DNA of 64,000 bases from a virus: the IMG/VR virus record IMGVR_UViG_3300036045_000007; one strand, 5' to 3'. The notes beneath the pieces are model-generated. The model saw only the letters and a list, made by a program, of their open reading frames with translations. It searched no databases and was not told the origin of the DNA. Both the position numbers and the translations under genes were made by a program. Below are positions 33,939 to 64,000 of the stretch, piece by piece (within the stretch, counting starts at the first letter, position 1; each line of letters opens with the position of its first letter).

Positions 33939-35118
<1,180 letters not shown>

Positions 35119-35122
<4 letters not shown>

Positions 35123-35705: not shown

Positions 35706-35721
35706 CACGGCTCTCCTTTCT

Positions 35722-35753: not shown

Positions 35754-35835
35754 ACCATCGCTTGTCACTTTGGTACGCTGGTCGGGATGAGATTCATATG
35801 GGCTGTGGTCCTCGAAGTAGTAGGATCATCGCCGC

Positions 35836-36018: not shown

Positions 36019-36053
36019 CGAGATACCCCTTTCGTGAAGCATCTCCACCGAAT

Positions 36054-36085
36054 GGTGTGCTACGAGCACACCCACCGTGGGCGAG
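36054..36085 (-). repeat. hairpin-plus-12-mer element, copy b
   Basis: + strand: GGTGTGCT-ACG-AGCACACC then CACCGTGGGCGAG. Intergenic. Confidence 0.65.
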
Positions 36086-36096
36086 CCAGCCGTGGC

Positions 36097-36408: not shown

Positions 36409-36587
36409 TGTGGCCTCCGATAGTCGCCGAGCAATGCCTCATGCAGATCGTCGCTCTTTGCACAGTACAGACAAATACCCCATTCCGCTGACGGCATGAT
36501 TGCTTCGCGGAAGTTGTCGAGGATCACTTGGGCCTCGTCTGCGGTATCAGCATCCTCGAACTCAGCAATGAGCACGAGCTTCACCAT
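36405..36587 (-). CDS. small acidic protein
   Basis: 60-aa ORF, ATGA coupling downstream. Confidence 0.45.
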   Translation of the reverse strand: MVKLVLIAEFEDADTADEAQVILDNFREAIMPSAEWGICLYCAKSDDLHEALLGDYRRPQ

Positions 36588-36591
36588 CTAC

Positions 36592-36861
36592 TCAACTCCC
36601 ATCCGCTTCGAGATACCTGCCCCCGTTGGTCGTGGCCCACTCCCTGGCTGTGCTCAACACGTGGCGAGGCAGTTCCCACAAGTCGAGCATCGCACCCTTC
36701 CCCTTCACGTCATACTGCCAGCGCTTGTCGCCGGTCTGCACGATCTCGGACCAATCACGGTCCTTGGTCATGCCGTTGCGGAACAGGAGCTTCGATCCAT
36801 GAAACTCCCGACGCACGTGGTCCCTCAGCTCGGCTGAGAGCCACAATCGAGCTTTGGTCAA
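36592..36861 (-). CDS. hypothetical protein
   Basis: TTG at 36861 overlaps the upstream TGA (TTGA). The 5' part of the track ORF 36592-37077 overlaps a better gene. Confidence 0.4.
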   Translation of the reverse strand: MTKARLWLSAELRDHVRREFHGSKLLFRNGMTKDRDWSEIVQTGDKRWQYDVKGKGAMLDLWELPRHVLSTAREWATTNGGRYLEADGS

Positions 36862-37223
36862 GCGTTGCTCCCTTCGTACTGCGGCTTCATCTTGCGCATG
36901 GCTTCGATGAGGCTCTTGAGTGATGCTACTTCCTCCCTGAACACTTCGTCGAGGTACTCGTCGCCTGAGTCGCTCTCGACGCCCCACAGCCCAGGGCTTT
37001 CGAGGTTGATGAATGTCCCAACGCCACTCTGGACGATCATGCACATGGCGCGGGCCCTGATACCGACGTAGTGCCACTGCCCGCGCTCGAATGCACGCTT
37101 CCGGGCGCCGGACAACTCCGTTCTCAGCTCGCAGTCGTCGTCAGGAAGTACCTCACGCTCGAACTGCACGTAGAATCCATCCTTCCGCTTGGTGTCGATG
37201 TGGGCGAACTTCGGTGTGCTCAT
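36858..37223 (-). CDS. hypothetical protein
   Basis: 121-aa ORF. SPGLWGVESDSGDEYLDEV segment. ATGA coupling upstream. Confidence 0.5.
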   Translation of the reverse strand: MSTPKFAHIDTKRKDGFYVQFEREVLPDDDCELRTELSGARKRAFERGQWHYVGIRARAMCMIVQSGVGTFINLESPGLWGVESDSGDEYLDEVFREEVASLKSLIEAMRKMKPQYEGSNA

Positions 37224-37432
37224 GCTGCACCCCTTTCACTCGGGCCCACGATCCCACACTGTTGCATCAGGTCGCGGAACATGGAGGTGGGTAGCACTCC
37301 GCCTGGCCAGTGCTGACGCTCGCGGTCCACGATCCGCCGCACTCGTTCAGTGGTCAGCCAGTTGGCCCGCTCAGTGCGAAACCCCATGATCGCGCGGAAC
37401 TCCCGCCTGTTTGGGCAGTAGTACCCATCCAC
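37220..37432 (-). CDS. hypothetical protein
   Basis: 70-aa ORF. Confidence 0.45.
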   Translation of the reverse strand: MDGYYCPNRREFRAIMGFRTERANWLTTERVRRIVDRERQHWPGGVLPTSMFRDLMQQCGIVGPSERGAA

Positions 37433-37435
37433 AGG

Positions 37436-37504
37436 TCACTCTCCCTTCGTCGTGTACTGCCACACGAAGATGGCAGCCACAGCCAGCCCTACCAGTAATT
37501 CCAT
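37436..37504 (-). CDS. 22-aa single-helix micro-protein
   Basis: MELLVGLAVAAIFVWQYTTKGE, with AAGGAAAAAAA immediately upstream of the ATG. Very short, so tentative. Confidence 0.25.
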   Translation of the reverse strand: MELLVGLAVAAIFVWQYTTKGE

Positions 37505-37522
37505 TTTTTTCCTTTTTTCCCC

Positions 37523-37544
37523 AATCCCGCAGCGCTGCGGGATT
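37523..37544. other. perfect 22-nt palindrome AATCCCGCAGCGCTGCGGGATT
   Basis: Read directly. Flanked by T-runs on the + strand (A-runs on the minus strand). Lies in the 209-nt ORF-free gap 37505-37713. Confidence 0.9.
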
Positions 37545-37713
37545 GCCTTTTCGCGCCGAAGAGCGCGCAGCAATCCCCTCCCGCGATTCGAGCTGCGTTG
37601 CCGAACCACGGTCCCCGCACCATGCCCGACGCATGGCCGATCCGCGCACGCTGAGCGCACACCCAGCGCAGGCGGATAGGCCAGCGCTCCGCACTGGCAT
37701 CTACCCGGTGGCC

Positions 37714-38691
37714 TTACGCCACTTTCGCCTTCTCACCCACAACCGCCTTGGCCGCTTTCTTGCTGCCGTCGATCATGGCCTTGCTCAAGTACGCCAGCGA
37801 GTTCCGGTCGTTGGCGTTCACCAAACCCTGAGCCAGCGAATCACCCATTTCCTGCGTCCACCGCAGTATCGTGCCAAGCTGCACGAGGACCGCACAGTGC
37901 GTGGGACCGCTCAGAAGGGCCTTGATCCGCTCCGCAGCCTCGCGCGGCGACTCAGGCTCGGCTTGGGGCTTCTGGCCCTCGTCCTTCTCGCCCTTGGGCT
38001 TGCTGGCACGCTCCTCCTTGGCCTTCTCCTTGTCCGCCCCCTGCTCAGCGGTGAGCTTCCCCGTTACCCGCCGCACGGCAATGCTGGTCTCGGCAGCGGT
38101 CATCACTTGCGTGCCGTCCACCAACGCGGCGAACATGGCTTGCAGCTCTCCCACCTGCTCGGCGGTCAAGTCCGGCTTGAACTCCCAGTGCTCAGGCTTG
38201 GCGTCCTTCCCGCTCTGCCGCTTGAGCGTGGTCTCGAACGGGCGAATCTGGCCGATGCCCAACGCCTTGCACCCTTCCCGGCCATAGACCTCGGCGACAC
38301 CATGCAGCCGCAAGCAATCCTCCACCTGCGGAGTGTCGCTCTGGCCGCACACGTCGTCCAGCTCGCGTTGCAGCCGATTCACCCCTGCCGCACGGCTCTC
38401 ACGCCTGATCTTGGCGTCAGTCTCCCCACGCAGCCGATGGCCGAGGTACTTCGCCGCCGCTTTCCCGATCCAAAGCAGCGACACCGTGCGGGCCTTGGCG
38501 TAGTTCCCCGCGTGCTGACGCAGGGCTTCCAAGTCCCGCTCCAGCAGCTCGGCACGCTTGGCATCCGTCTCCGGTGTCTGCTCCGGTGGCGTACCCTCGG
38601 TTTCCAACGCCTGCTCAGCGTTGACGGCGGACGCACCGCCGGTGTTGCCAGCCAGCGCGGACGCTGGACCGGCCACTGTAGTAGTGGTCAT
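37714..38691 (-). CDS. hypothetical Lys/Glu-rich protein
   Basis: 325 aa from the ATG at 38691 (GAAGGGAG upstream). Charged KEKAKEERASKPKGEKDEGQKPQ linker. Confidence 0.5.
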   Translation of the reverse strand: MTTTTVAGPASALAGNTGGASAVNAEQALETEGTPPEQTPETDAKRAELLERDLEALRQHAGNYAKARTVSLLWIGKAAAKYLGHRLRGETDAKIRRESRAAGVNRLQRELDDVCGQSDTPQVEDCLRLHGVAEVYGREGCKALGIGQIRPFETTLKRQSGKDAKPEHWEFKPDLTAEQVGELQAMFAALVDGTQVMTAAETSIAVRRVTGKLTAEQGADKEKAKEERASKPKGEKDEGQKPQAEPESPREAAERIKALLSGPTHCAVLVQLGTILRWTQEMGDSLAQGLVNANDRNSLAYLSKAMIDGSKKAAKAVVGEKAKVA

Positions 38692-38729
38692 TGCGCAGAA
38701 TCTCCCTTCACGCATCCCCGCACTACGCT

Positions 38730-38761
38730 CAGGCACTTCGGGTGCCTGCACCGTGGGCGAA
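38730..38761 (-). repeat. hairpin-plus-12-mer element, copy c
   Basis: + strand: CAGGCAC-TTCGG-GTGCCTG then CACCGTGGGCGAA. Preceded by GCACTACGC, as in copy d. Confidence 0.65.
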
Positions 38762-38769
38762 CATCCGCC

Positions 38770-38925
38770 TTACCGGGCGACGACTGCCCTACGCTCACGC
38801 AGGAATCCCCGCAGCGTTGCCGTACCCCGCACTGGACGTCGTACTACCGTGGCGTGCGGATTCTCCCGCCCAGACCGCAGCCAGTCCGCCACCTGCCGCA
38901 CGCGCACTTTCTCCGTCGTGTGCAT
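38770..38925 (-). CDS. small Arg-rich protein (51 aa)
   Basis: ATG at 38925 lies 7 nt after GGAGAG. MHTTEKVRVRQVADWLRSGRENPHATVV... Flanked by element copies c and d. Confidence 0.35.
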   Translation of the reverse strand: MHTTEKVRVRQVADWLRSGRENPHATVVRRPVRGTATLRGFLRERRAVVAR

Positions 38926-38958
38926 GGAACTACTCTCCACGCACCCTGGCACTACGCC

Positions 38959-38990
38959 GGTGGCATACGATGCCACCCACCGTGGGCGAA
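38959..38990 (-). repeat. hairpin-plus-12-mer element, copy d
   Basis: + strand: GGTGGCAT-ACG-ATGCCACC then CACCGTGGGCGAA. Preceded by GCACTACGC. Confidence 0.65.
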
Positions 38991-39017
38991 GGGCGATGAT
39001 CTTACCGCACGCGATCC

Positions 39018-39221
39018 CTACACGCTGGCCTTGCCGCTGTAGTACCAGCCCACACTTCCGGTGCTGAACTCACGCGGCACCAGCGTCAGCGTCATGCCGT
39101 TGCCGTCCGTGAACGTGCGTGGCTTGGTGTTGTCCGCCAGCCACTTGGCCCTCTGCTCTGGCGTCCACGTCTTGCTGTGGACCACGGTGAGCTGCGACTG
39201 TGCTTGTACGACCTGTGCCAT
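39018..39221 (-). CDS. hypothetical protein
   Basis: 67 aa from the ATG at 39221. The C-terminal FSTGSVGWYYSGK motif is seen in many small bacterial and phage proteins (from memory). Confidence 0.5.
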   Translation of the reverse strand: MAQVVQAQSQLTVVHSKTWTPEQRAKWLADNTKPRTFTDGNGMTLTLVPREFSTGSVGWYYSGKASV

Positions 39222-39302
39222 GACCATAACCCACCCCTTACACCGCTGCACCATACCGCACCGCGTAGCACGGCGATTCGCGGATTTTTTCGCCGTCGCA
39301 AA

Positions 39303-39331
39303 ACCCTAGCTCGCAAAAAATCCGCTGTCAA
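39303..39331 (-). promoter_or_regulatory. sigma70-like promoter (TTGACA-17-TAGGGT) bracketed by an 11-bp inverted repeat
   Basis: Minus strand reads TTGACAGCGGATTTTTTGCGAGCTAGGGT. The inverted repeat GCGGATTTTTT (39280-39290) / AAAAAATCCGC (39315-39325) flanks the -10. Confidence 0.5.
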
Positions 39332-39434
39332 ATTTTCGGTCGAATTTTTTTTGCGGACCATTAGAGCCGCGCCCGCGCGATCCTCCTACTCGCGAACACC
39401 AATCCTTGCGCGCCTGCACGCACGCCCGCGTTCG

Positions 39435-39485
39435 TACCACACGCGCGTATCTTACCACGCCCACGCATACCCGCGCACGCGATCT
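39435..39485. repeat. three imperfect tandem ~15-18-nt units (iteron-like)
   Basis: TACCACACGCGCGTATCT / TACCACGCCCACGCA / TACCCGCGCACGCGATCT, read directly. Lies in the 549-nt ORF-free region. Confidence 0.35.
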
Positions 39486-39803
39486 CGCCAAACCCTATAC
39501 CTGCTCAGTGTTACCAATACCCCATAATCGCTGTATGTCGTAAGTCGTTGGTGGGTATGGTAGATGCGTCACGTACATGCCAATTTCTTGGCACGTTGGC
39601 AGCGATATTCACAACAGACAGGACATAAGCCTATGGCGTGTAAGGAGTTACTAAAACCCTACCCGCCCGGCCCCATCAAACCCTCCCAGGTCTCCGGGTA
39701 CACCACCACTGATTTTTAAGCCATTATCGCTCGCACCAGGACAGCGTAGGCCGCGTTTGGATTCAGAAAACGGACGGGGAGGCGTTTGAGAATTCGGGTT
39801 CGT

Positions 39804-40085
39804 CTAATGCGATTTCAGTGCCCTGGAAGTGGCATGTGGGCTTTTTACTGGCCAGGGTGGGCCAGGGTGTGTGAAAGGTGGAGTGAGCCCTTTGAGGTAG
39901 AAGACGTTTTGAGCGGTGAGGTTGTGATCGAGAACGAGGTCGAGCATGGCTGGTGAGACGACGATGAAGCCGTCAGCGGATCGGGCTGCGAACTTGGAGC
40001 CGGTGAGGTCGGAGTGACCGCAGGCTGGGAAGGTGGGAGCTGAGACGCCGGTGAGGAGGTCGAGCAGGTTTTGGGTAGCGTCCAT
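39804..40085 (-). CDS. hypothetical protein
   Basis: 93 aa from the ATG at 40085. Third codon positions mostly C, which looks coding, but there is no clear SD and no motif. Confidence 0.4.
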   Translation of the reverse strand: MDATQNLLDLLTGVSAPTFPACGHSDLTGSKFAARSADGFIVVSPAMLDLVLDHNLTAQNVFYLKGLTPPFTHPGPPWPVKSPHATSRALKSH

Positions 40086-40538
40086 GCTTACTGCCGATGT
40101 GGGTATGGAGAAATGGAAGAAGATGAGGAAAAATGCGCACCGTCCCCCTCTTGCGTCCGCCTCCGTGGTCCTCGTCCTCCTTGCGAGAGGGGTTGTCCAG
40201 TTCACTGTCTTTGGGGGTGGGTGGGGGTGGTTTTGACTCCACTTTTCCCTACCGCGCGCTCACCGCTGAACAAGTGTCAAGGATTAAACCTCGCACTGGA
40301 GTATCGAGTCCAGGCTGGCCTGGTCGCACCCTCTTGGCCAAATGAGGACTTTCCACCGTGCCCTGCCCTTCGGAGATGCGGTTTCCCGAGTCTACCGACT
40401 GGCGCCTCTGGCCTCACCCACGCGGGAGTTCACAACCGCCTATAGTTGGGGATCAGCGTGGGGTTCCCCTTGGGTTGTGGCCGATGAAGTTACCCCTTCG
40501 GTCGGCGGGATGATTTTAGGCTGGAGGGTGGGTTGGCG

Positions 40539-40682
40539 TCAAGCCTTCTCGAATTTCCAGTAACCGCCGTAGGCGCCGCCTTTGGTGAATGTGATGGTGC
40601 CTTTGTCGCCAGCGACGGCGGAATGATCGCTGTCGGTGCCGATGAGGAAGTGCCCTTCGCCGTCTTCATCGACGACGATCAT
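40539..40682 (-). CDS. possible small protein (47 aa, not in ORF track)
   Basis: My translation: MIVVDEDGEGHFLIGTDSDHSAVAGDKGTITFTKGGAYGGYWKFEKA. ATGA overlap with another possible 43-aa ORF (40680-40810). No SD. Confidence 0.25.
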   Translation of the reverse strand: MIVVDEDGEGHFLIGTDSDHSAVAGDKGTITFTKGGAYGGYWKFEKA

Positions 40683-40937
40683 GGTGTGAACTCTGACGCC
40701 TCGAATGGACTCCCATCGTCACATCGGACATCAAGCACCTTGGCGGACTTTTTTGTACCGTAAGGCCAGGTACGTGTTTTCATGGTTCGGAGATCGCGAT
40801 GGGTGGTCATGTGATTGGCGGCTCGTTCAGGTGTCCGCCGTCTCGCCAGCCGGTGATCCAGCGACGATGATTTCGAGAAGGCGGGCGGTTGTGGTTGCCT
40901 GGACGCGGGCGTCTTGTTCCATGTTATATTGAGTTGG

Positions 40938-40966
40938 GTGAAAAATTGGCGACAGTTTGGTAAGAT
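40938..40966 (+). promoter_or_regulatory. sigma70-like promoter (GTGAAA-17-TAAGAT) with GGCGACAGTT box in spacer
   Basis: GTGAAAAATTGGCGACAGTTTGGTAAGAT. Same -35 / 4 nt / box / -10 layout as promoters 35093-35122 and 48786-48813. Confidence 0.45.
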
Positions 40967-41143
40967 GGTGGGTGATGGCCGGGCAAAAGCGTTTGGAGAA
41001 ATTCCGTGGGGAGATGTCTCCTCCGTATGCTCACCGCGAGCGATAGGCGCGGGAAAAGTATCCCCGCCCGGCCATCGGAGCCTGGTTGCCCGGATACCGC
41101 CACGAGCCTCGCGAGAGGGAAAAGGCGGCACAACGCTCTGGCG

Positions 41144-41186
41144 CTCCCCCCGAAAGGGGAGTTGCCCAGCACCGGGCTCCTTTTTT
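41144..41186 (+). terminator. terminator/attenuator-like hairpin with U6, with competing upstream hairpin
   Basis: CTCCCC(CCGAAA)GGGGAG hairpin at 41144-41161. GGGGAG can instead pair in GGA..GCCC(AGCACC)GGGC.TCC, followed by TTTTTT at 41181-41186. The RBS GGAGG starts at 41192. Confidence 0.4.
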
Positions 41187-41204
41187 CATTTGGAGGCACG
41201 AGAT

Positions 41205-41459
41205 ATGCGGCGTAGTGAACCTGGTGACTTCGGCGTGGTCATGGACAAGGAGGAGTTTCGCCAGCGGATGCTCAGCGAGTTCGACGGGCAGTTCAAGGGG
41301 AAGATGAGCCTCGACGAGCTGCTTCTGCGACCGCGAGTGGCTTTGTGGTTTTGCGACTTCGTTCGGGAGAAGAACCGCTGGTGGGATCTGCCCGACGACG
41401 TGATCCTGCGGTCGATTATGGCCGCGAGAAAGAACCCTGCGTTGAAGAGCGGTGTATGA
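41205..41459 (+). CDS. hypothetical protein
   Basis: 84 aa from the ATG at 41205 (GGAGG 8 nt upstream). The in-frame upstream extension of the track ORF 40914 looks non-coding. Confidence 0.5.
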   Translation: MRRSEPGDFGVVMDKEEFRQRMLSEFDGQFKGKMSLDELLLRPRVALWFCDFVREKNRWWDLPDDVILRSIMAARKNPALKSGV

Positions 41460-41779
41460 TGATCCTGATGCACGTCACCCACGAGAACGGTGAGATGATC
41501 GGTCACTTCAAAAACAGTTGGCACCGGGACGGCGGCAAGCCGCAACAGCGTGGAACGCCGATGGTCGTGGTAACGGAAGAGCTTCTGCGCGCGGGGATGG
41601 CGGACAATGGCGGGTACACTCGGGCCCAATTCCAGTTGGTCGGCGTGCTTGAATGGCCCCCGCTGAAGGGATGGAAGCGGAGTGTGCTCGGCTCGCTCAT
41701 TCCCAGGGCGGACGCGGAAGAGTTTCTGCGGATTCGCCGGTTGAAGCGCGAGGAAGCCCAGGCACCAACCCTCTTCTAA
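41456..41779 (+). CDS. hypothetical protein
   Basis: 107 aa, ATGA overlap upstream. GGYTRAQFQLVGVLEWPPLKGWKRSVLG is a motif I recall from prophage hypotheticals. Confidence 0.5.
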   Translation: MMILMHVTHENGEMIGHFKNSWHRDGGKPQQRGTPMVVVTEELLRAGMADNGGYTRAQFQLVGVLEWPPLKGWKRSVLGSLIPRADAEEFLRIRRLKREEAQAPTLF

Positions 41780-41918
41780 TCACCGTCGGCGCCTCGATGT
41801 CTACGTGCCCGTTTGTCTGCTCGGCCTTCAACGTGCCGCAATTGGGGCACCAGAACTTGCGCTCGCCGGGCACGCCGAGGTTTTGCATCGTTTGGTTGCA
41901 GGTTGGACAGGCCATCAC
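41697..41918 (-). CDS. small Zn-ribbon protein
   Basis: MMACPTCNQTMQNLGVPGERKFWCPNCG. The 3' end converges on and overlaps 41456-41779 by 83 nt. Confidence 0.45.
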   Translation of the reverse strand: MMACPTCNQTMQNLGVPGERKFWCPNCGTLKAEQTNGHVDIEAPTVIRRGLVPGLPRASTGESAETLPRPPWE

Positions 41919-42103
41919 TTATTGATCCTTTCGAGCCAGCACTCCCGACACCGCTTCCGCTTGCGGTAGCCGGACGAGCCCTTGGCGAACATGGTGTGGC
42001 CGCACACGAGGCGGAACTCGATTGAGCCGTGACCATGCCTGGCATACTTGGACTGTCGCCACGTGACAGCCTGGACATCGACGAGCGGTCGTGGATCAGA
42101 CAT
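41915..42103 (-). CDS. small Cys-containing protein
   Basis: 62 aa from the ATG at 42103. C-terminal KRCRECW. Confidence 0.45.
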   Translation of the reverse strand: MSDPRPLVDVQAVTWRQSKYARHGHGSIEFRLVCGHTMFAKGSSGYRKRKRCRECWLERINK

Positions 42104-42294
42104 CACGTGCTCTCCAACCAAACGGTCACGTGCGGATCATCGCCACAGTCCCAATCAACACGGCGAACCAGGTAGGTGTGCTTCTCGATTGTGACCCGCT
42201 CGTTTTGAACCGGGATGCGCGGGAAGTAATCGACGCCGAATTCTAATGCCTGGTCGATGGCATGGCCCATGATCTTTACAACGACACGTCTCAT
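42103..42294 (-). CDS. hypothetical protein
   Basis: 63 aa from the ATG at 42294 (GAAGGAGA upstream). Confidence 0.45.
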   Translation of the reverse strand: MRRVVVKIMGHAIDQALEFGVDYFPRIPVQNERVTIEKHTYLVRRVDWDCGDDPHVTVWLEST

Positions 42295-48910: not shown

Positions 48911-50161
48911 ATGTTTCGTCGGCTTGAGTTTTTTCTTTCACCGGATGAAGGCGGGGGCGCTGGTGGGAACATCCCTGGAGGCAATGTTCCTGCTGGCTCG
49001 ACTGGCAGTAACGTCGCTCCTGGTGGGACTCCTGCTCCTGGCGCTGATGGTTCGCAGGCCGGGTCAAGTCCGGGCATATCTGGCGGCGGCACGCCAGCGG
49101 GCGGCGCTCCGACTCCAATCTCCGCAGCAAGCGCCCCGGAATTCGACGACATTCGGGATGTGGCTCGGCAGTATGGCCTCGATCTGTCGCAGTACCAAGA
49201 CAGTCGAGCCGCCGCCCAATACCTGATCGAAACCGCGCGCGACAACAGCGCCTATCTCCAGTATGGCCGAGCGCTCGCGCCGCACTACTCGGACTTCCAG
49301 CGATTCCTCGAACAACGGCAAGCTGGTGCTCAGCCACAGATGCAGCAACAGCAGGTTCCGCAGAAGCCGGTAAATCCGTTCGGACTTCCCGACTTCGATC
49401 CCGCGTGGCTCGACATGGTTGTTCGAGATGCGCAGGGAAATTTGATCCCCAAGCCTGGGACACCGCTCGATGTTCCGGCGAAGATCATGTCCTACTACCG
49501 CGCGCGTCAGGCAGCGCAGGACAAACTCTTCACCAATCCCCAAGACGTGCTGGTGCCGATGTTGCAGCAGGCGATCGCGCCGATGTTGCAGCAATACTTC
49601 CAGACCAACATCGGTCAGATGGGGCAACAGCAATTCATCCAAGGATTCCTCGGCGAGCACGGCCAGTGGATTTATCAAGTCGATCCGCAGGGCCGCTCGA
49701 TCATTGATCCCGTCAGCGGGCGAAAGCAATTCACGCAGGAAGGATACCGCCTGTTCCAACACATCGAGAACGCTCACCGCATGGGCATTCAGAGCTACCA
49801 GGATCAGGCGCAGTACGCGATGAACATGCTGCGAATGGAATACCAGGCCCAAGGTGGCCAGCAGCAGACGCAGCAACAGCAAGGCGGATCATTCGGCGAC
49901 CAGATGCAACAGCAGTTGCCGCCGCCTCAGCAACAGGCGCCGAATCCGTTCGCCTCGGCGATGGCGCAGAACAATCAGCTCAAGCAAGGGTTTTTGCAGG
50001 CGCATAATCGGCGCCCGAGCTACGGCGGTTCGATGCAGCCGCCGAACAACACGAACAATCAGGTTCCTCAGAACTCGAACCTGAGTCTGCGGGAGATGCT
50101 CGCGCAGAATTTGAAGCAAGCCGGGATCACGGATGCCATGATCGCAGCGGGCCCCGGTTAA
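48911..50161 (+). CDS. Gln-rich protein, putative head scaffolding protein
   Basis: 416 aa, AAGGAGGG upstream, immediately precedes the capsid gene. Low-complexity Gly/Pro N-terminus and Gln-rich C-terminus. Role from position only. Confidence 0.45.
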   Translation: MFRRLEFFLSPDEGGGAGGNIPGGNVPAGSTGSNVAPGGTPAPGADGSQAGSSPGISGGGTPAGGAPTPISAASAPEFDDIRDVARQYGLDLSQYQDSRAAAQYLIETARDNSAYLQYGRALAPHYSDFQRFLEQRQAGAQPQMQQQQVPQKPVNPFGLPDFDPAWLDMVVRDAQGNLIPKPGTPLDVPAKIMSYYRARQAAQDKLFTNPQDVLVPMLQQAIAPMLQQYFQTNIGQMGQQQFIQGFLGEHGQWIYQVDPQGRSIIDPVSGRKQFTQEGYRLFQHIENAHRMGIQSYQDQAQYAMNMLRMEYQAQGGQQQTQQQQGGSFGDQMQQQLPPPQQQAPNPFASAMAQNNQLKQGFLQAHNRRPSYGGSMQPPNNTNNQVPQNSNLSLREMLAQNLKQAGITDAMIAAGPG

Positions 50162-50185
50162 ACCTCGTTGGAAAGGAGTTGAACG

Positions 50186-51268
50186 ATGGCTGATTGGAGC
50201 CGTATCGTCAACACGACCATCAAGAATTACATTCGAGAGGTCGAAATTGACGTGTTGCGGAATCGAAAAGTCCCGGCAATGTTGAAGGCAAAGGGCCGCA
50301 TCACCTTCAACTGGTCAGGGGACGGCATGGATTGGAAAGTGCGCTTCAAGCGTGCTCCCATGATCGGCTACGCCGACACCGATACTTTGACGTTCGCGCG
50401 TCTGAATCGGTGGAAGACCGCGCAGCTCGATTACCGTGGCTATGCAACCACGGACAGCATGACCAAGCAAGAGCGGCTGAAGAACAAGTCCACCGAAGCG
50501 ATTGTGAAGGTCTACGATGAGATCACTCGAAATCTCGTCGAGGACATGGAAGATCAATTCGGCGACGAGTTCTACATTGACGGCAACGCTGCTGGAAACT
50601 CGAAGCGACTGCACGGTATTGAGTCGTTCTTGGGCGATGGCGGCGTAAGCTCAGGCGGCTTCATCGCTCTGCCATCGGATGAATACGCTGGTATCAACAC
50701 GGCTCTCGGCACTTACGGTGGAACGTGGACAGGTACTTCGAGCAACTGGCCTAAGGCGACGGGCGATGGCCACTTCGACTTCTGGTCGCCGTTGCTCGTT
50801 GACTACACCGACACCGCTTGGGCCGCGACAACCAAGACGTGGCCGAATACCTGCGAAGAGGCGATGCGGTTTGGCCTCATCTACTCGCGCAAAAACAAGA
50901 GCAAGCGCGGTGCGGTTGACTTCATCATCCTTGATGAAGAGCTGTACCGTCAGTTCTTGGACAAGATCAGCACGAAGGAACGTATCATCGTTGATCGAGG
51001 CGACAAGAACAGTCTCGTCTCCCTCGGCTTCACCGATGTCACGAACTTCGACGGCGCCGAAGTGACCACGGAGTACGGTCTCCCGGCCAACATCGGCTAC
51101 GGATGGAACATCGACCAGATGGAACTTCGGTCGCAACAGGGCCAGTTGTTCGTCCCTGAAGGGCCCGATTATGACATCGCGACGAAGAGCTGGCGATTCT
51201 CAATCGACTTTTTCGGCAACATGGTCTTCCGTCCGCGTTACTTCCTGAAGTTCAAGGCGTACACCTAA
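50186..51268 (+). CDS. major capsid protein
   Basis: 360 aa, AAAGGAG upstream, follows the scaffold-like gene and is followed by a hairpin. Size and N-terminal pattern fit phage coat proteins. No search was run. Confidence 0.65.
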   Translation: MADWSRIVNTTIKNYIREVEIDVLRNRKVPAMLKAKGRITFNWSGDGMDWKVRFKRAPMIGYADTDTLTFARLNRWKTAQLDYRGYATTDSMTKQERLKNKSTEAIVKVYDEITRNLVEDMEDQFGDEFYIDGNAAGNSKRLHGIESFLGDGGVSSGGFIALPSDEYAGINTALGTYGGTWTGTSSNWPKATGDGHFDFWSPLLVDYTDTAWAATTKTWPNTCEEAMRFGLIYSRKNKSKRGAVDFIILDEELYRQFLDKISTKERIIVDRGDKNSLVSLGFTDVTNFDGAEVTTEYGLPANIGYGWNIDQMELRSQQGQLFVPEGPDYDIATKSWRFSIDFFGNMVFRPRYFLKFKAYT

Positions 51269-51323
51269 CCCACCATCTGAGGCCGGTGGTTGACCTACTG
51301 ATTCAAAGTAAAGGAGTTCTAGT

Positions 51324-51941
51324 ATGGCTCGTTTGGAAAACCCGCCGTTCCCTCGCGGCCAAACTGGTTTGGAAATTCAGGCGTCAAGCACCGGCTCAAC
51401 GGCTGACTTGACGCAATACGAGGGCAAGGAATGGTGGTTCGAGGACGTTGATCCAGTCAATAAGACGACGCGAACCAACCAATTCGTCAAATGCCGAGTC
51501 GTGCGAAACACTGGCACCTTCGCGCTCAGGCCGAAGCGTGTTGCTCGATTCTCACTGGCACCCAACGCGAACGGCTCCTTCGGGAGCCAGATCGACGGTT
51601 ACGCAGCAGTGACCGCCGAGCGTTGCTACCCGGTGGACGAGTACCTGCCGTCAGGCGGTGTTGGTGTCAATGACCTGTGCTGGATCGTCACTGAAGGCCC
51701 GGCTCTGTGCTTGACAGACTTAGCCGCTCTTGGCTCGGTCATCGACATCGGTGACAAGGTGGTCTCTCAGACTGCCGCAACCAGCGGTGCGACAACTGCC
51801 GGTCGAGTCGTCGAGCAAGTTCTGACTGGTGCGACATCGCCGCTCGCGGTGCAGATCATGCACTACATCGGCCATGCGATGACGGCACGCACTACCAACA
51901 ACACCGACGCAGACATCCTCGTCAACGTCGGTCACTGGTAA
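51324..51941 (+). CDS. hypothetical head-associated protein (possible decoration/accessory)
   Basis: 205 aa, AAAGGAG upstream, last gene before strong terminator 51979-52006. Confidence 0.45.
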   Translation: MARLENPPFPRGQTGLEIQASSTGSTADLTQYEGKEWWFEDVDPVNKTTRTNQFVKCRVVRNTGTFALRPKRVARFSLAPNANGSFGSQIDGYAAVTAERCYPVDEYLPSGGVGVNDLCWIVTEGPALCLTDLAALGSVIDIGDKVVSQTAATSGATTAGRVVEQVLTGATSPLAVQIMHYIGHAMTARTTNNTDADILVNVGHW

Positions 51942-51978: not shown

Positions 51979-52006
51979 GATGGCCGGTGAGCAATCACCG
52001 GCCATC
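51979..52006 (+). terminator. intrinsic-terminator-like hairpin (12-bp stem, GCAA loop)
   Basis: GATGGCCGGTGA-GCAA-TCACCGGCCATC followed by ACTTTGG. Read directly. Confidence 0.6.
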
Positions 52007-52076
52007 ACTTTGGTCGCACGTGGCCGCTTCCATACTTTAACGCTTTACCAACCTAATTCCCTTGGGAGAAGTAAGC

Positions 52077-53000
52077 ATGAAGCTGAACGTCATGATCGCA
52101 CGCTACCCCGCGCTGATTCCGGGCGGCGGCGAGCACCCGGCCACAACTGACTGGCTGGTGCAGACAGTAGCCCGCATGAAGCAGGACGAGCGCATCGGTC
52201 GCATCGCGCACATCAAGCTGAACGACACGCCGATCACGATGAGCCGTAATCGGACGATGCACGCGCTCAAGGAGACGGGCTCCGACCTGTGCTTGATGGT
52301 TGATTCGGACATGCACCCTGACAAGTACCTGGGTGTCGATCCGAAGGCCGCTCCGTTTTGGGACACCGCCCTCAACTTCTACTGGAAAGAAGCGGGCGGT
52401 CCGTGCATGATCGCGGCGCCTTACTGCGGACCGCCGCCGCACGAGAACATCTACATCTTCCGCTGGCGGAATCGCCAGAGCGATCACTCGAACGTCGATT
52501 TCTCCCTGGAACAATTCACGCGGGAAGAAGCAGCGGAGCGCGAGGGCATCGAAGAAGTTGCCGCGCTGCCGACCGGCCTTGCGATCCTCGACACGCGCGC
52601 GCTCGAAGCGTTGAAGGAGCCTTACTTTTACTACGAGTGGAAGGGCGCCGGTCCGCCATGCCCGCATTGCGGCAACCCGAGTCCTTCAGGTCCGCAGATG
52701 GAGAAGGCATCGACTGAGGATGTCGCGTTCACACGCGATCTCTCGTTGGCCGGAATCCCGGTTTTCTGCGTATGGAATTCATGGGCTGGTCACTACAAGG
52801 TAAAATGCGTTGGCAAACCAGTGATCGTGACACCGAAGATGATCTCCGACAAGTTCCGGCACGCCCTTGCTCGCGAAGAGATGCGGAAGCAGGAAAAGCA
52901 CAAACGACGGCCTGCTGTTGAAGGAATCCAAAATGGAAACTCCGACAACCAACTTATCACCACAGGAGACGACTCGCCAGCAGTGCTTGCAAATGCGTGA
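52077..53000 (+). CDS. GT-A-fold glycosyltransferase (family-2-like)
   Basis: SRNRTMHALKETGSDLCLMVDSDM (DxD) and the later TEDVAFTRDLSLAG resemble GT2 signatures. ATG at 52077 after GGGAGAAG. Confidence 0.55.
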   Translation: MKLNVMIARYPALIPGGGEHPATTDWLVQTVARMKQDERIGRIAHIKLNDTPITMSRNRTMHALKETGSDLCLMVDSDMHPDKYLGVDPKAAPFWDTALNFYWKEAGGPCMIAAPYCGPPPHENIYIFRWRNRQSDHSNVDFSLEQFTREEAAEREGIEEVAALPTGLAILDTRALEALKEPYFYYEWKGAGPPCPHCGNPSPSGPQMEKASTEDVAFTRDLSLAGIPVFCVWNSWAGHYKVKCVGKPVIVTPKMISDKFRHALAREEMRKQEKHKRRPAVEGIQNGNSDNQLITTGDDSPAVLANA

Positions 53001-53190
53001 TGACAAAAGTTACACGCGACAAATGACGGTCGTGCTCGTGCTGGCGTGTTATCTCATTGTGGTTCCGTTGATCGTGTTGGTCGCCCTTTTGTTTGGGAAT
53101 GAATGGCTCGGGGCGAGGATGGCCCTTGAGACCGCATCGTGTTTTTTCGTGACTGGAGTATGCCTGCTGATCTTGAGCAGGCGACAATAG
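52933..53190 (+). CDS. two-TM small membrane protein (holin-like)
   Basis: 85 aa from the ATG at 52933 (GAAGGAA upstream). Helices MTVVLVLACYLIVVPLIVLVALLF and ALETASCFFVTGVCLLILS. Overlaps the GT gene by 68 nt. Confidence 0.4.
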   Translation: METPTTNLSPQETTRQQCLQMRDDKSYTRQMTVVLVLACYLIVVPLIVLVALLFGNEWLGARMALETASCFFVTGVCLLILSRRQ

Positions 53191-53203
53191 GGAGGATGCA
53201 GCC

Positions 53204-53455
53204 TTGGACACTCCGATTCTTGTTACCGTCGTCGGTATGGTTCTCGCCGCACTCGGAGCCGCAGTCACGGCGGTAACGAGCTACATGACCAATCGCGACA
53301 AACTACGATTCGATGCCGAGCGCATCAAAGACCGCGCCGACATTGCGTACCTGAAGCAACGAGAAAAAGAATGCCTGGAAGAAACAGCGGAGATGCGAAA
53401 ACGCATCGAACATCTCGAAGAGCAGTTGCGCATCATTAACCGGGAGCGAAAATGA
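53204..53455 (+). CDS. N-terminal TM plus coiled-coil protein (spanin/holin-accessory-like)
   Basis: TTG start after GGGAGGA. ILVTVVGMVLAALGAAVTAVTSYM helix, then a charged heptad region. Confidence 0.4.
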   Translation: MDTPILVTVVGMVLAALGAAVTAVTSYMTNRDKLRFDAERIKDRADIAYLKQREKECLEETAEMRKRIEHLEEQLRIINRERK

Positions 53456-54219
53456 GCTGGCTTCGCGAGTGCGTTTGCGCCCTAATCGTCGCCCTCCCAT
53501 TCTTCACAGTCCAGGGCCCACCTAAGCAGCCAGAAGTTGTTGTTACTCGGGGCGCGGGCGGCGACTCTCTGATACAGCTTCCGAGCAAGGTGATCGGTGT
53601 CGCTGGCGCACCAATCGAAATTAAAGCGGAGACCACGTGTGAGTATGTCGAATGGTTCCCGCTCGATCCTGGCCTGCACTGTGTTCGACCAGAGCTGTTC
53701 AAGGATTCTAGGCTTGCCGTTGTCTTCGCTCCGGTGAAGGGAGAATATCGGCTCGCCGCGTGGACCGCGTTGAACAACAAGCCGTCGAAGTTGGCGGTCG
53801 TCATCGTCGCGGTTGCTCCACCAGGCCCAGGCCCTGGTCCCGATCCTGGTCCGGGCCCCGGACCAGGGCCGACTCCGATCCCGGTTCCAGTTGATGGACT
53901 TCGCGTGATTTTCGTCTACGAGTCGGCATCGAAGCTCAGCCGCGAACAGCTCAACATCCTCAACTCCACCAAGATCGCCGAGTACCTGAATTCCAAGACG
54001 GTCAAGGACCAGGATGGTCAACCTGGTTGGCGGACTTGGGACAAAGATGTGGACGTGCAGTTCGCCCCGCAGCTCTGGAAAGATTTGTGGGCCTCGACCA
54101 AGCCTCAGTTGAGCAACCTGCCAGCTCTGTTGATCGTGTCCGGCAAAAAGGGCGAAGTCTTTCCCTTACCGGCAACGGAAAGCGAAACCATCGCTCTACT
54201 CCAAAAGTACGGGAAGTGA
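53452..54219 (+). CDS. exported two-domain protein with Pro-Gly linker
   Basis: ATGA coupling upstream. Hydrophobic N-terminus CALIVALPFFTV. PPGPGPGPDPGPGPGPGPTPIPVP linker. C-terminal alpha/beta domain. Confidence 0.5.
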   Translation: MSWLRECVCALIVALPFFTVQGPPKQPEVVVTRGAGGDSLIQLPSKVIGVAGAPIEIKAETTCEYVEWFPLDPGLHCVRPELFKDSRLAVVFAPVKGEYRLAAWTALNNKPSKLAVVIVAVAPPGPGPGPDPGPGPGPGPTPIPVPVDGLRVIFVYESASKLSREQLNILNSTKIAEYLNSKTVKDQDGQPGWRTWDKDVDVQFAPQLWKDLWASTKPQLSNLPALLIVSGKKGEVFPLPATESETIALLQKYGK

Positions 54220-54222
54220 TCT

Positions 54223-55014
54223 ATGGGTTTTACCAGCAAGCTGTACCCAAACGAACCGATTTGGGATGAATCAACTCCTGACCGCGTGACTCATGCCTCG
54301 GAATTCGGTCGTGGCCTGCGTCTCGATCTGCGAAGCACGCCGTTTGGCGACATCCCCTGTGCTCCTGCGTTCCCGCAAGAACTTCTGATCCCTGAGTCCG
54401 ACGTCGAAGGATGGATCAAGGAGAAGGAAGAGCGGCAAAATCGGATCAGCGATCATTGCAACAAGTTCGGCCTGCCTCACAAGGACCAGGCGCAGACGAA
54501 CTACTGCTGGATCAACGCGCCGGTTCACTGCGTTGAGATCATCCGCCTGTTGCAACATCAGCAGATGGTTATTCTCTCGCCCGCGAGCTGCGGTGCGAAG
54601 ATCAAGGGGTTCCGCAATCAAGGCGGGTGGGGACAAGAGGGTCTCGAATACATTGTCGAAAACGGCGTCGTGCCGGTGAGCATGTGGCCAGCCAACGCCA
54701 TTGATCGGCAGTACGACAAGCCAGAGTTTTGGGCCGAAGCGAAAAAGTACCGAGTCACGGAATGGATGGAGTGTCGGCCACGAAGTTGGATCGAACTCGT
54801 CTCTTGTTTGCTCCGCAACATTCCGGTCGCCGTGGGCTACAATTGGTGGAGCCACGAAGTAACGGCGTGCGACGTTGTTTGGATCGACGGCACGTCGGAG
54901 CTGCGAATCAGGAACTCGTGGAAGGGTTGGGGCGAGAACGGCTTCGGCATCCTTCGCGGAAGCAAGAAGCTGGCCGACGATCAAGTTGCGCCGCGCGTCG
55001 CGATGGCGGCGTAA
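54223..55014 (+). CDS. papain-family (C1) cysteine peptidase
   Basis: Gln at -6 and Cys-Trp (QAQTNYCWINA), His (WWSHEVTACDV) and Asn-Ser-Trp (IRNSWKGWGENGFG) reproduce the papain catalytic signature. No signal peptide. Confidence 0.8.
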   Translation: MGFTSKLYPNEPIWDESTPDRVTHASEFGRGLRLDLRSTPFGDIPCAPAFPQELLIPESDVEGWIKEKEERQNRISDHCNKFGLPHKDQAQTNYCWINAPVHCVEIIRLLQHQQMVILSPASCGAKIKGFRNQGGWGQEGLEYIVENGVVPVSMWPANAIDRQYDKPEFWAEAKKYRVTEWMECRPRSWIELVSCLLRNIPVAVGYNWWSHEVTACDVVWIDGTSELRIRNSWKGWGENGFGILRGSKKLADDQVAPRVAMAA

Positions 55015-55089
55015 GAGGCTTGCCGCTCGGCGGGTCATCTTCTATACAGCCATAGCGTCAATTTGGCGACATTTACGAAAGGAGTGCCA

Positions 55090-55440
55090 ATGGCGGACTT
55101 TCATCCGTTGCCGGAAACATTTCCGGTAGTGCAGATCATCGCAGCGGTTCGGGACATCAAGAAGAAGAAACAGACCGGGGCACGTGCTGTTTGGCATGGC
55201 GCCGGGTACGGCATCAACAAGCTCGTGAAGGACGACGAGCCAATCCTGGGCTTGACCGCACAGGAAGAGAAAGACCTTGACCTGCTCTGCGACCGCGCAC
55301 TGGCTGTGTTGGAATCGACTGGCCGATCTGTCGGTGCGGAAACTGAGGGCGGGGTCGCAGCCGGGGCGATCACCATTGAAACGGTGATGTCCGTCCTCAT
55401 CCCGATCTTGCTCAAGATTTGGCCGATTCTCAATAAGTAA
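55090..55440 (+). CDS. hypothetical protein with hydrophobic C-terminal tail
   Basis: 116 aa from the ATG at 55090 (AAAGGAG upstream). Ends VMSVLIPILLKIWPILNK. A GGCGACATTT box variant lies at 55065-55074. Confidence 0.45.
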   Translation: MADFHPLPETFPVVQIIAAVRDIKKKKQTGARAVWHGAGYGINKLVKDDEPILGLTAQEEKDLDLLCDRALAVLESTGRSVGAETEGGVAAGAITIETVMSVLIPILLKIWPILNK

Positions 55441-55504
55441 AATCAGGCTCGGCACGTTGCCAGCCTGTCGGAGTGTTCAGGAAAGACTCATTAAGGAGTT
55501 TCAG

Positions 55505-55960
55505 ATGGTAGCTCGACTCATTGTAGTTCTCGCCGCTGCATTAGCGGTGCCAGCGTTTGCGTTCGCCGACGACCAGAAATTCGACATCACCAAGCCGAAG
55601 GCAGACGCGAAAGCAGCATGTGTGTGCGGCCCCAATTGTCCCTGTGCTCCATGTGATTGTCCAACAGGCACGACGATGACGCTCGTGTGGGACGGTCAAT
55701 CATGGAAGAAGACTGGCGGCGTCGCGTCAGGTCCGGTGAATTGCGCGGCTCAGCAAACGTACTACTACAGCCATTCCTACGGGCACGGTTGCAACGGCGG
55801 TCATGCCTCGTATGGCTGTAACGGCGGCGGTCATGGAAGCTATGGTAATGGTTACGGCTGCGCTGGCGGTCACGGCGGCGGTTTATTCGGTCGCCGTGGT
55901 CATGGCGGCGGCATCTTCGGAGGCGGTTGTGGGCTCTTGGGTCGTCGCGGCGGCTGTTAG
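55505..55960 (+). CDS. secreted Cys/Gly/His-rich protein (metallothionein-like CxC cluster)
   Basis: ATG at 55505 after TAAGGAG. Signal peptide MVARLIVVLAAALAVPAFAFA. CVCGPNCPCAPCDCP cluster. C-terminal GHGCNGGHASYGCNGGGHGSYGNGYGCAGGHGGG..GRRGGC. Confidence 0.55.
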   Translation: MVARLIVVLAAALAVPAFAFADDQKFDITKPKADAKAACVCGPNCPCAPCDCPTGTTMTLVWDGQSWKKTGGVASGPVNCAAQQTYYYSHSYGHGCNGGHASYGCNGGGHGSYGNGYGCAGGHGGGLFGRRGHGGGIFGGGCGLLGRRGGC

Positions 55961-55986
55961 ATTCAGGCCCAACCTGTTGTTGAAAT

Positions 55987-56020
55987 GCAGGCCAGCTTTC
56001 CGAAAGGCGAGCTGGCCTGC
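55987..56020 (+). terminator. terminator-like hairpin (11-bp stem, GAAA-capped)
   Basis: GCAGGCCAGCT-TTCCGAAAGGCG-AGCTGGCCTGC. The U-tract is weak (TGTGCTT). Confidence 0.5.
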
Positions 56021-63103: not shown

Positions 63104-63377
63104 ATTCCTCGACGAAATCATGTCGGTATGGAAGGGCCCGCGCGAATTCGCCAAAGACCTGAAAGCGGAGTTCGACGCAGCCAAGCCTGGCGGCTTGATG
63201 AAAGCCAAGCTGATCGAGGCGGTTGTTAAAATGCTCATTGCCCATAGTGCCAGGCCGACGCACGACGGATTCGATCTGAGCAAAGCGACGGAGGAAGAGT
63301 TGGCGGCTGCGTTCGCCGCTCTCACAGGCGAGAAGAATGGATCAGGACGACCCACTACGAATCCCGCCAAAGACTAG
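63024..63377 (+). CDS. possible small terminase subunit
   Basis: 117-aa helical basic/acidic protein immediately upstream of, and overlapping, terL. Call by position only. Confidence 0.35.
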   Translation: MEATGPAAAEYIKELAKHRKRRLVVGEFLDEIMSVWKGPREFAKDLKAEFDAAKPGGLMKAKLIEAVVKMLIAHSARPTHDGFDLSKATEEELAAAFAALTGEKNGSGRPTTNPAKD

Positions 63378-64000
63378 GCGCAACGTCCAACCTCGACGCA
63401 GTGCCAACTCTCCAAAGAAGCCGCCGAAGCTCCCTGAGCGGCCAGTGTATCTCGACGAGCCTGTCATCCCACAGCCGACCGCCGAGATCAAGGAATCCAT
63501 CGAAGGCCAGATCAGCAACTACCAGCGCGAGCAGCTCGCTGCGATCCTGGGTGAGCAACTCGGACGCATGGCTGAGTCGCTGCGACTGTACGAACCGCTG
63601 GCGGTGCAAAACCGATTCCACGCATCGCGGAAACCAGAGCGCGTGCTGCGCGGTTCAAACCGTGGCGGTAAGACGCTGCCCGCCGCCGTGGAGATCGCCC
63701 GCGCCGTGACCGGCCAAGACCCGTTCAACAAGTACCCGCTGACAGACGGTCGCGTCGTCGCAGTCGGCAAAGACGGCAAGCACATCGCGGAGACGATGTA
63801 CTACAAGCTCAGCCGCGCGCGGGCGTTCAAGATCATCCGCGACAAGGAGACCAAGCTGTGGCGGTCGTTCCGTCCGTGGGATCAGGAGGACGCCGATCGC
63901 GCACACGAGGCGAAGCCGTCGCCGCCACTGATACCGCAGCGGTTCATCAAAGCGATCACCTGGGAGGACAAGAAGGGAAACCAGCCGAAGAAGATCATCT
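63337..64000 (+). CDS. terL: terminase large subunit, N-terminal part (3' end outside window)
   Basis: ORF is absent from the track because it has no stop in the window. My translation from the ATG at 63337 gives ..VLRGSNRGGKTLPAAVEIARAV (Walker A) and continues open to nt 64000. Confidence 0.7.
   Translation, partial: MDQDDPLRIPPKTRRNVQPRRSANSPKKPPKLPERPVYLDEPVIPQPTAEIKESIEGQISNYQREQLAAILGEQLGRMAESLRLYEPLAVQNRFHASRKPERVLRGSNRGGKTLPAAVEIARAVTGQDPFNKYPLTDGRVVAVGKDGKHIAETMYYKLSRARAFKIIRDKETKLWRSFRPWDQEDADRAHEAKPSPPLIPQRFIKAITWEDKKGNQPKKII

Follow-up and report, generated by a model that had tools for sequence, protein, structure and literature searches.

A papain-family peptidase and its exported partner in a candidate non-canonical lysis cassette of an uncultured phage

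The IMG/VR virus record IMGVR_UViG_3300036045_000007 was analysed here as a stretch of 64,000 nucleotides (nt), hereafter the window, in which the region 51979–56020 holds seven genes, g1 to g7, on the plus strand between two strong hairpins. Six of these genes, g2 to g7, may well constitute a non-canonical lysis (egress) cassette, a reading that excludes g1 and that is held with moderate confidence on the basis of sequence comparisons. The conserved core of this cassette appears, from the gene order of related loci, to be g4 plus g5, whose predicted products are an exported two-domain protein and a cysteine peptidase. The features of the region are the following.

Hairpin 1, 51979..52006, plus strand: perfect 12-bp stem, GATGGCCGGTGA / TCACCGGCCATC, with a GCAA loop
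g1, 52077..53000, plus strand: cytoplasmic GT-A-fold glycosyltransferase with an invariant DxD motif, D76-S-D78
g2, 52933 or 52993..53190, plus strand: membrane protein with two transmembrane (TM) segments, a holin-like candidate
g3, 53204..53455, plus strand: protein of 83 aa with an N-terminal TM helix and then a highly charged coiled coil
g4, 53452..54219, plus strand: protein with a signal peptide, an immunoglobulin (Ig)-like beta-sandwich, a (PG)n linker and a C-terminal domain; its start overlaps g3 in an ATGA
g5, 54223..55014, plus strand: papain-family (C1) cysteine peptidase
g6, 55090..55440, plus strand: 116-aa tail-anchored protein with a TM or amphipathic helix at its C-terminus
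g7, 55505..55960, plus strand: secreted protein of 151 aa with a signal peptide, 12 Cys and a Gly/His-rich region
Hairpin 2, 55987..56020, plus strand: stem of 12 + 2 bp

The exported protein and the papain-family peptidase

The product of g5 matches PF00112 (22.5 bits against a cut-off of 20.7, E 1.4e-4), and the best of its matches among PDB sequences is ficin (E 1.7e-5), with chymopapain (E 1e-4) and caricain also found and both catalytic motifs aligned. Residues Q89, C95 (in QTNYCW), H211 (in WSHEVTA) and N231 (in RNSW) follow the order of Q19, C25, H159 and N175 of papain and are invariant in 30 homologs; to judge by these residues, g5 is a catalytically intact C1 peptidase. The protein lacks a signal peptide and its N-terminus is not hydrophobic, so that a preliminary description of this DNA, which had seen in g5 a C1 peptidase without a signal peptide, stands on both points. 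Ahead of the catalytic domain lies a conserved N-terminal extension of about 85 residues, which is possibly a pro-region. A word-indexed search for the g5 family returned 573 matches at 52–67% identity, and an exhaustive search gave 511 clusters (50% identity) at E <= 1e-30. Among GenBank phages (50,697 records), no match was obtained either to the DNA of the cassette by blastn or to g5 by tblastn.

Inteins of 133–370 aa interrupt the C1 homologs P0317, P0321, P0348, P0360, P0374 and P0462. They sit exactly ahead of the catalytic Cys (...NY/C...HN/CW...), at a point equivalent to about codon 95 of the window g5 (about position 54505), and the catalytic Cys thus doubles as the +1 extein residue. 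Inteins are usually found in highly conserved, essential phage genes.

The AlphaFold2 (AF2) model of g4, built from 64 sequences, has a predicted local distance difference test (pLDDT) score of 87.5. Its N-terminal domain, the one part of g4 matched in searches of PDB sequences, is Ig-like, internalin K being found by profile (E 1e-9), and the Foldseek matches of the model, namely the C-terminal Ig domain of lambda gpV, the SU10 tail and ICAM, concern the Ig domain only. In the C-terminal domain (C-domain), DSSP assigns strands (E) and helices (H) at E150-156, H164-182, E193-197, H207-219, E225-230, E233-238 and H243-253, i.e., an order of beta-alpha-beta-alpha-beta-beta-alpha, which is consistent with a thioredoxin fold. 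Moreover, P224, conserved in at least 90% of the sequences, occupies the position of the cis-Pro of thioredoxin folds. No CxxC occurs in the C-domain, and the beta1-alpha1 junction has no Cys and a conserved E157. The signal peptide and the modelled domains agree with the earlier view of g4 as an exported two-domain protein with a (PG)n linker.

About 50 loci related to the cassette were gathered from IMG/VR, GTDB genomes and assemblies. Of the 39 non-redundant loci that could be judged, 38 have a g4-like gene immediately 5' of the C1 peptidase gene, and the two genes often overlap by 4 nt (e.g., in L040). Two representatives of the family, P0428 and P0418, are single chains that run from a membrane anchor through a Pro-rich linker and the g4 C-domain to the peptidase, the profile of the g4 C-domain matching at E 4e-19 in the former and E 6e-18 in the latter. 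The single N-terminal anchor of P0428 would place its peptidase outside the cytoplasmic membrane, and the positive-inside rule, taken by itself, suggests a location outside the cytoplasm for that of P0418. Adjacency and such natural ('Rosetta-stone') fusions show, at the level of gene organisation, that g4 and g5 are functionally linked. The natural g4–C1 fusions together with the inteins in the active site indicate strong selection on the pair as a conserved functional unit.

Two other roles for the peptidase were considered and rejected: that of a prohead protease, given that relatives have their own S49 protease and that g4 is exported, and that of a virion-associated entry enzyme, given that g4-like proteins consistently carry signal peptides.

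Neighbours of the pair and the search for a conventional lysin

The architecture of the window, which comprises a TM + coiled-coil protein, a 2-TM protein, g4, g5, a g6-like and a g7-like protein, is repeated in L047, L048, L049 and the fusion locus L053. In L048 and L049, which are the closest, as well as in L053 and L051, the pair has small 2-TM and TM + coiled-coil proteins on its flanks; in these four loci the 2-TM proteins stand at the position of g2, and g3-type proteins are found in L048, L049, L053, L015 and L021. The product of g2 itself has 85 aa if read from the ATG at 52933, which is preceded by a Shine–Dalgarno (SD) sequence, or 65 aa from the ATG at 52993, with TM segments at about residues 13-31 and 43-61 of the 65-aa form; it matches no family in Pfam or PHROGs. 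For g3, a weak match to phrog_6664 (E 8.5e-5) was obtained, and its role could be that of a holin partner, of an antiholin or of a spanin-like protein. Both TM segments of g2, described before as a 2-TM holin-like protein, were recovered, and the TM helix and coiled coil of g3, with its stop overlapping the start of g4, are likewise as first described. Two relatives, L017 (E 3e-26) and L037 (E 1e-23), have a Phage_holin_4_1 (PF05105) gene no more than about 1.5 kb from the pair, and the PHROG holin family phrog_199 matches two proteins neighbouring the pair.

The module is also placed among late genes. In L012, L013, L014 and L040, it is located directly upstream of genes for a gpA-type large terminase subunit (TerL), a lambda-type portal, an S49 protease and the major capsid protein, and several proteins encoded no more than two genes from the pair match PHROG terminase (TerL) families. 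In lambda, the lysis genes occupy this position just upstream of TerL. The cassette of the window lies 3' of the capsid genes on the same strand.

In 11 loci, the start of a protein with the thioredoxin motif WC[GA]PC or YCGPC falls between -82 and +16 nt from the peptidase stop, and a SCQPC variant occupies this position in L053. Thioredoxin is the commonest Pfam family among 134 neighbours of the pair (8 matches), and those neighbouring thioredoxins that were inspected have signal-like hydrophobic N-termini. The thioredoxin is fused to a trypsin-like protease in L024 and L055, and secreted trypsin-like or M10 (matrixin-type) proteases stand beside the pair in L002, L036 and L050.

The two remaining genes of the cassette also have counterparts in relatives. 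The motif W-H-x-A-G-Y of g6 recurs in its homologs as W-H-x-A-G-Y/F; BLAST detects such homologs 3' of the C1 gene in L047 (E 4e-6) and L048 (E 2e-4), and g6-like proteins are also present in L009, L021 and L051. In g7, the motif QKFDIT follows the signal peptide, then come the cluster CxCxxxCxCxxCxC and repeats rich in Gly and His, and the basic tail closes with ...GRRGGC; the counterpart of g7 in L048 ends in ...RGGRGGC. Further counterparts form the N-termini of the trypsin-like proteins of L002 and L055 or occur in L035, L053 and L021. The C-terminal TM segment of g6 bears out its description as a tail-anchored protein, and the signal peptide and 12 Cys of g7 that of a secreted Cys/His/Gly-rich protein.

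Just after the signal peptide, the secreted proteins encoded 3' of the peptidase have a common motif, F-x-[IV]-T-x-G-F-x-I, of which the stand-alone thioredoxins carry the variant DEW[KRE]F[KRE]V. It is located in L002:10846-11970, L055:10816-12036, L048:3868-4191, L052:10811-11053 and window 55505-55960, its carriers being thioredoxins, trypsin-like proteases and Cys-rich proteins, and it may be a docking or sorting tag. In addition, small PAS-domain proteins are encoded within the cassettes of L048 (923-1327) and L051 (11276-11962), and they could be sensors that tune the timing of lysis.

A conventional lysin was sought among the roughly 80 ORFs (open reading frames) of the window, at E <= 0.01 for Pfam and E <= 1e-4 for PHROGs. 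The families assigned were those of structural, replication and recombination genes, and neither database gave a lysozyme, amidase, transglycosylase, CHAP, NlpC, holin or spanin among these ORFs. A lipobox scan of the window yielded no credible lipoprotein o-spanin, the only matches being artefactual antisense ORFs. The three scans agree with the preliminary description, which had recognised no lysozyme, transglycosylase, amidase or spanin lipoprotein in the window. No peptidoglycan-hydrolase Pfam family is recorded within 10 kb on either side of the g4–g5 pair in L002, L004, L047, L050, L051, L052 and L055, nor within 10 kb on either side of the g4–C1 fusion gene in L053, these flanks being shorter where a contig ends.

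A weak Peptidase_C92 match (E 0.009) among the ORFs of the window was considered as a possible sign of a hidden peptidoglycan hydrolase and gave no candidate: the homolog in L030 has no counterpart in the window, and ORF 12967-13443, located in the tail region, is a Gly/Asp-rich, structural-looking protein that matches no family and in which 12 consecutive Gly come after a stretch rich in Asp.

The hairpins, the glycosyltransferase and the layout of the window

Both hairpins are genuine, exceptional stem-loops. Hairpin 1 has a folding free energy (dG) of -25.1 kcal/mol (z -7.2) and hairpin 2 of -28.6 kcal/mol (z -6.2), with none of 200 shuffles as stable in either case. In a sliding 44-nt fold scan of the whole 64 kb, 87 windows reached -20 kcal/mol or lower and 11 reached -26 kcal/mol or lower, and the only intergenic ones among the latter are the two hairpins. 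Hairpin 1 starts 38 nt past the stop of a 205-aa gene, which is itself 3' of the major capsid gene, and hairpin 2 lies between the stop of g7 (55960) and the likely start of a RecE/YqaJ exonuclease gene (ATG 56077). The preliminary description was right that two strong hairpins bracket seven genes; its claim that the cassette is bounded by terminators is not supported, as no U-tract follows either hairpin (the tails are ACUUUGG for hairpin 1 and UGUGCUU for hairpin 2) and a consensus terminator scan of the window called neither. A terminator role is therefore an assumption, and hairpin 1 may instead be an attenuator or an RNA-stabilising element. Between 51.5 and 56.5 kb, no RNA family was found in Rfam, and no promoter was detected for the cassette. 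A further strong palindrome, at 53829-53872 (dG -30 kcal/mol), is located inside g4, in the DNA that encodes the (PG)n linker, and is among the three most stable 44-nt windows of the window.

The first gene after hairpin 1, g1, seems to belong elsewhere. Its AF2 model (pLDDT 89.6) finds STIV A197 as the best Foldseek match (E 7e-10, probability 1.0), followed by COLGALT1, KfiA and GalNAc-T2, and D76-S-D78 is unchanged in 45 sequences; the earlier assignment of g1 to the GT-A glycosyltransferases is borne out by this structural match and by the DxD motif. At the level of sequence, no Pfam glycosyltransferase family is matched significantly (the best being TAGT at 0.065 and GT49 at 0.12), and neither profile nor single-sequence searches of PDB sequences gave a match, the family having more than 1330 homologs and no Pfam domain. 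Given the weak TAGT-like matches, it is a possibility that the target of g1 is DNA or protein rather than the envelope. As g1 is absent from every C1-bearing locus examined, it is by gene order a separate passenger outside the conserved peptidase module, which removes it from the single seven-gene cassette that had been described. In a few members of the g1 family (P0216 and P0309), the GT-A domain is fused to a Methyltransf_24 domain, and the window has its own separate Methyltransf_24 protein among the ORFs of 42291-64000.

The seven genes between the hairpins are all preceded by an SD-like sequence, except for the g2 candidate start at ATG 52993, and the long antisense ORFs over the region are spurious, high-GC artefacts, as judged from the guanine-plus-cytosine (GC) content by codon position and from the homologs of the plus-strand genes. 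The window represents a nearly complete phage-like genome, as identical proteins (P0001, P0121 and P0197) are recorded on a 67,224-bp JGI contig. Its first nucleotides belong to an SU10-type portal gene and its last ones to an ORF that matches terminase weakly and is probably TerL; if these assignments are right, the remainders of both genes would account for most of the unseen 3.2 kb.

The gene order is unusual, in that the genes for a 416-aa protein, the major capsid protein and the 205-aa protein (48911-51941) are separated by about 12 kb from the probable TerL and portal genes downstream (63337-64000, 1-818), with the cassette and the genes for recombination and replication (RecE/YqaJ exonuclease, a DnaC-like loader and DUF5131) in between. 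A minus-strand block at 23355-42121 contains a Resolvase-type serine recombinase, an SNF2/DEAD helicase (25027-27282), DUF6948, DUF932 and an HNH endonuclease, and, given this block, the phage may be temperate.

A proposed lysis cassette, its alternatives and the host

The preliminary description had suggested a lysis module, and this suggestion gains from the holin, TerL and thioredoxin or protease neighbours of the pair and from the membrane-anchored fusions, while the seven-gene unit that went with it has not been retained and its terminators are an assumption. In the scheme proposed here, the cassette would be transcribed with the late capsid genes, hairpin 1 perhaps attenuating its expression. 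The products of g2 and g3 would enter the cytoplasmic membrane as a holin-type timing or permeabilising component, g4 and g7 would be exported to the periplasm through the Sec pathway, and g5 would build up in the cytoplasm, gaining access to the envelope only once the membrane is permeabilised; the anchored fusions would instead be exported directly. Through its Ig-like and thioredoxin-like domains, g4 would target, dock or activate g5. Thiol or redox helpers, i.e., g7 in the window and, in relatives, secreted thioredoxins with a WCGPC motif, some of them fused to a trypsin-like protease, could keep the catalytic Cys reduced in the oxidising periplasm, reduce disulfides of wall proteins, or both. 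Finally, g5 would cut a load-bearing envelope protein or, possibly, peptidoglycan peptides or outer-membrane tethers, and g6 and g7 may aid the disruption of the outer membrane, a role ascribed to them because no spanin is present.

This logic is that of a holin–endolysin system, two defining features of which, a peptidoglycan-hydrolase domain and a spanin, were not found. As in the S/R/Rz/Rz1 cassette of lambda, small membrane proteins stand beside a soluble enzyme that lacks a signal peptide, and the genes are closely spaced or overlap; lambda-like relatives have the module immediately before the terminase gene, and PF05105 holins are adjacent in two relatives. However, the enzyme is a C1 protease and not a muramidase, transglycosylase or amidase, an exported g4 is its near-obligatory partner, secreted thioredoxins, proteases or Cys-rich proteins accompany it, and there is no lipoprotein o-spanin. 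Periplasmic redox chemistry is proposed to control the lytic enzyme here as it does the signal-arrest-release (SAR) endolysin Lyz of P1, and the anchored g4–C1 fusions P0418 and P0428 resemble signal-anchored lysins; nevertheless, P1 Lyz is a lysozyme with an intramolecular redox switch, whereas the cassette and its relatives have a protease and separate secreted thioredoxins or Cys-rich proteins. The clan CA endolysins (CHAP, NlpC/P60 and Amidase_5) are likewise papain-like, wall-breaking thiol enzymes with catalytic Cys and His (PMC10318531), but g5 belongs to C1 proper, with the Gln-Cys-His-Asn set and a pro-region-like N-terminus, and has no fused cell-wall-binding domain. A precedent for the lysis of a wall other than classical murein by a phage cysteine peptidase is given by the pseudomurein endoisopeptidases PeiW and PeiP of methanogen phages (PMC4592898), which differ in peptidase family, in their archaeal hosts and in that no secreted redox partners are known for them. 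In the mycobacteriophages, LysA and LysB are an example of extra enzymes fitted to an unusual outer envelope layer (PMC6116114); in contrast, LysB is an esterase acting on mycolyl-arabinogalactan, the activity of the cassette would be proteolysis with disulfide reduction, and the window shows no peptidoglycan hydrolase of the LysA type.

With regard to the host, 6 of the 11 matches in a genome collection with one genome per species are metagenome-assembled genomes (MAGs) of Planctomycetota, and L037 is a 77-kb contig of such a MAG. Since Planctomycetota make up only a few percent of the species, this is a strong enrichment, and the host is probably a member of this phylum. One further locus, L040 (RGRP01000005.1), is binned as Candidatus Fonsibacter lacus and has 63% GC and a lambda-like head module; the genus Fonsibacter has about 30% GC, and L040 is probably a mis-binned phage contig. 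PMC3035269 describes a planctomycete envelope protein that is rich in Pro and Cys and held stable by disulfide bonds; the protein resists detergents. A host with a proteinaceous wall layer, as first suggested, fits both the bias towards Planctomycetota and this envelope, the link to the host itself being statistical only. Even within the lysis reading, a specific protein wall as the substrate is put forward only tentatively. In its fullest and equally tentative form, more doubtful than the lysis reading as such, the proposal is that of a new class of phage lysis, present in at least 500 protein clusters of uncultured phages and proteolytic and reductive instead of glycosidic, in which the C1 protease on its g4 adaptor would digest the Planctomycetota sacculus, WCGPC thioredoxins, trypsin-like proteases and g7-type thiol donors would be recruited through the post-signal motif, and the target would be a disulfide-cross-linked, Pro/Cys-rich protein sacculus.

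Several points weigh against the lysis cassette or against its protein-wall form. Family C1 is not known as a lysin or to act on peptidoglycan. A direct association with a holin is found in just 2 of about 47 loci, and g2, g3, g6 and g7 match no known lysis family in Pfam or PHROGs. The thioredoxin-like character of the g4 C-domain is suggested by the order of its predicted secondary structure, unconfirmed by fold or profile search, and its alignment to the neighbouring thioredoxins with hhalign is not significant (E 0.36). A peptidoglycan hydrolase may be present and unrecognised, or lie within the unseen 3.2 kb; work by Jeske in 2015 and van Teeseling in 2015 reportedly established peptidoglycan in Planctomycetes, in which case such an enzyme should still be needed. 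The GC content of the loci ranges from 33 to 75% and some of the MAGs are assigned to taxa other than Planctomycetota, so the link to this host is a statistical one, and, given the GC spread, the hosts may not be confined to one phylum. In addition, some relatives carry integrases (L047 and L051) and the window has a resolvase-type recombinase, which leaves room for expression in lysogens.

If the cassette does serve lysis, g5 could still be an endolysin acting on the stem peptides or cross-links of peptidoglycan, as CHAP and NlpC/P60 enzymes do, with no special protein wall and with the thioredoxin and Cys-rich partners only protecting the catalytic thiol in the periplasm. The genomic context supports this possibility equally well, Planctomycetes have peptidoglycan, the window has no other recognisable peptidoglycan hydrolase, and the broad GC range of the loci suggests a target common to many hosts; cysteine lysins are, moreover, described as oxidation-sensitive (PMC8586454). 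It is nonetheless considered unlikely, since C1 enzymes are not known to cut the D-amino-acid or isopeptide bonds of peptidoglycan, the papain-like lysins of phages are CHAP, NlpC/P60, Amidase_5 and Pei and not C1 (PMC10318531), and the co-occurring secreted trypsin-like and matrixin-like proteases point to protein substrates. The region could also be a non-lytic unit for envelope remodelling, or moron, that trims surface proteins and glycans of the host, possibly for superinfection exclusion, for the destruction of receptors against the loss of progeny or for lysogenic conversion. Such a role would suit a unit flanked by strong hairpins, with a GT-A glycosyltransferase in first position, four products directed to the membrane or periplasm (g4 and g7 exported, g2 and g3 in the membrane), the recombinase of the window, the integrases of L047 and L051, and sugar-modifying genes nearby in L051. 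However, g1 is never found with the peptidase module, which is translationally coupled and resides in late structural and packaging operons, near TerL and holins, and an identity of 52–67% over more than 500 clusters together with active-site inteins is typical of core phage genes and not of morons, all of which makes this role improbable.

The absence of a signal peptide in g5, and its position about 3 kb downstream of the major capsid gene in the window, would agree with a protease that works in the cytoplasm, in host takeover, anti-defence or the maturation of virion or scaffold, and has no relation to its neighbours. This is very unlikely in view of the signal peptide of its obligate neighbour g4, the natural fusions that put the peptidase and the g4 domain behind a membrane anchor, and the secreted nature of the downstream partners; for maturation in particular, an S49 prohead protease is already present in relatives (L013), and the window has a ClpP/crotonase-like PHROG match in the batch of ORFs that starts at the portal gene.

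Nearly all characterised endolysins of bacterial phages attack peptidoglycan, and very little is known of how phages lyse Planctomycetota; few phages of this phylum have been cultured. A search of the literature for a C1-peptidase lysis module, a C1 lysin or a secreted phage thioredoxin in a lysis cassette returned no description of any of them, nor was one found of lysis by Planctomycetes phages. A C1-protease cassette with an exported partner and secreted thiol-redox proteins would be a different, and widespread, solution to the problem of lysis, and the tentative reading of a new lysis class, if true, would explain how Planctomycetota are lysed without a recognisable endolysin or spanin. 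The g4–g5 gene pair would serve as a marker for finding such phages in metagenomes, and the cassette could be a source of enzymes with which to open lysis-resistant cells.

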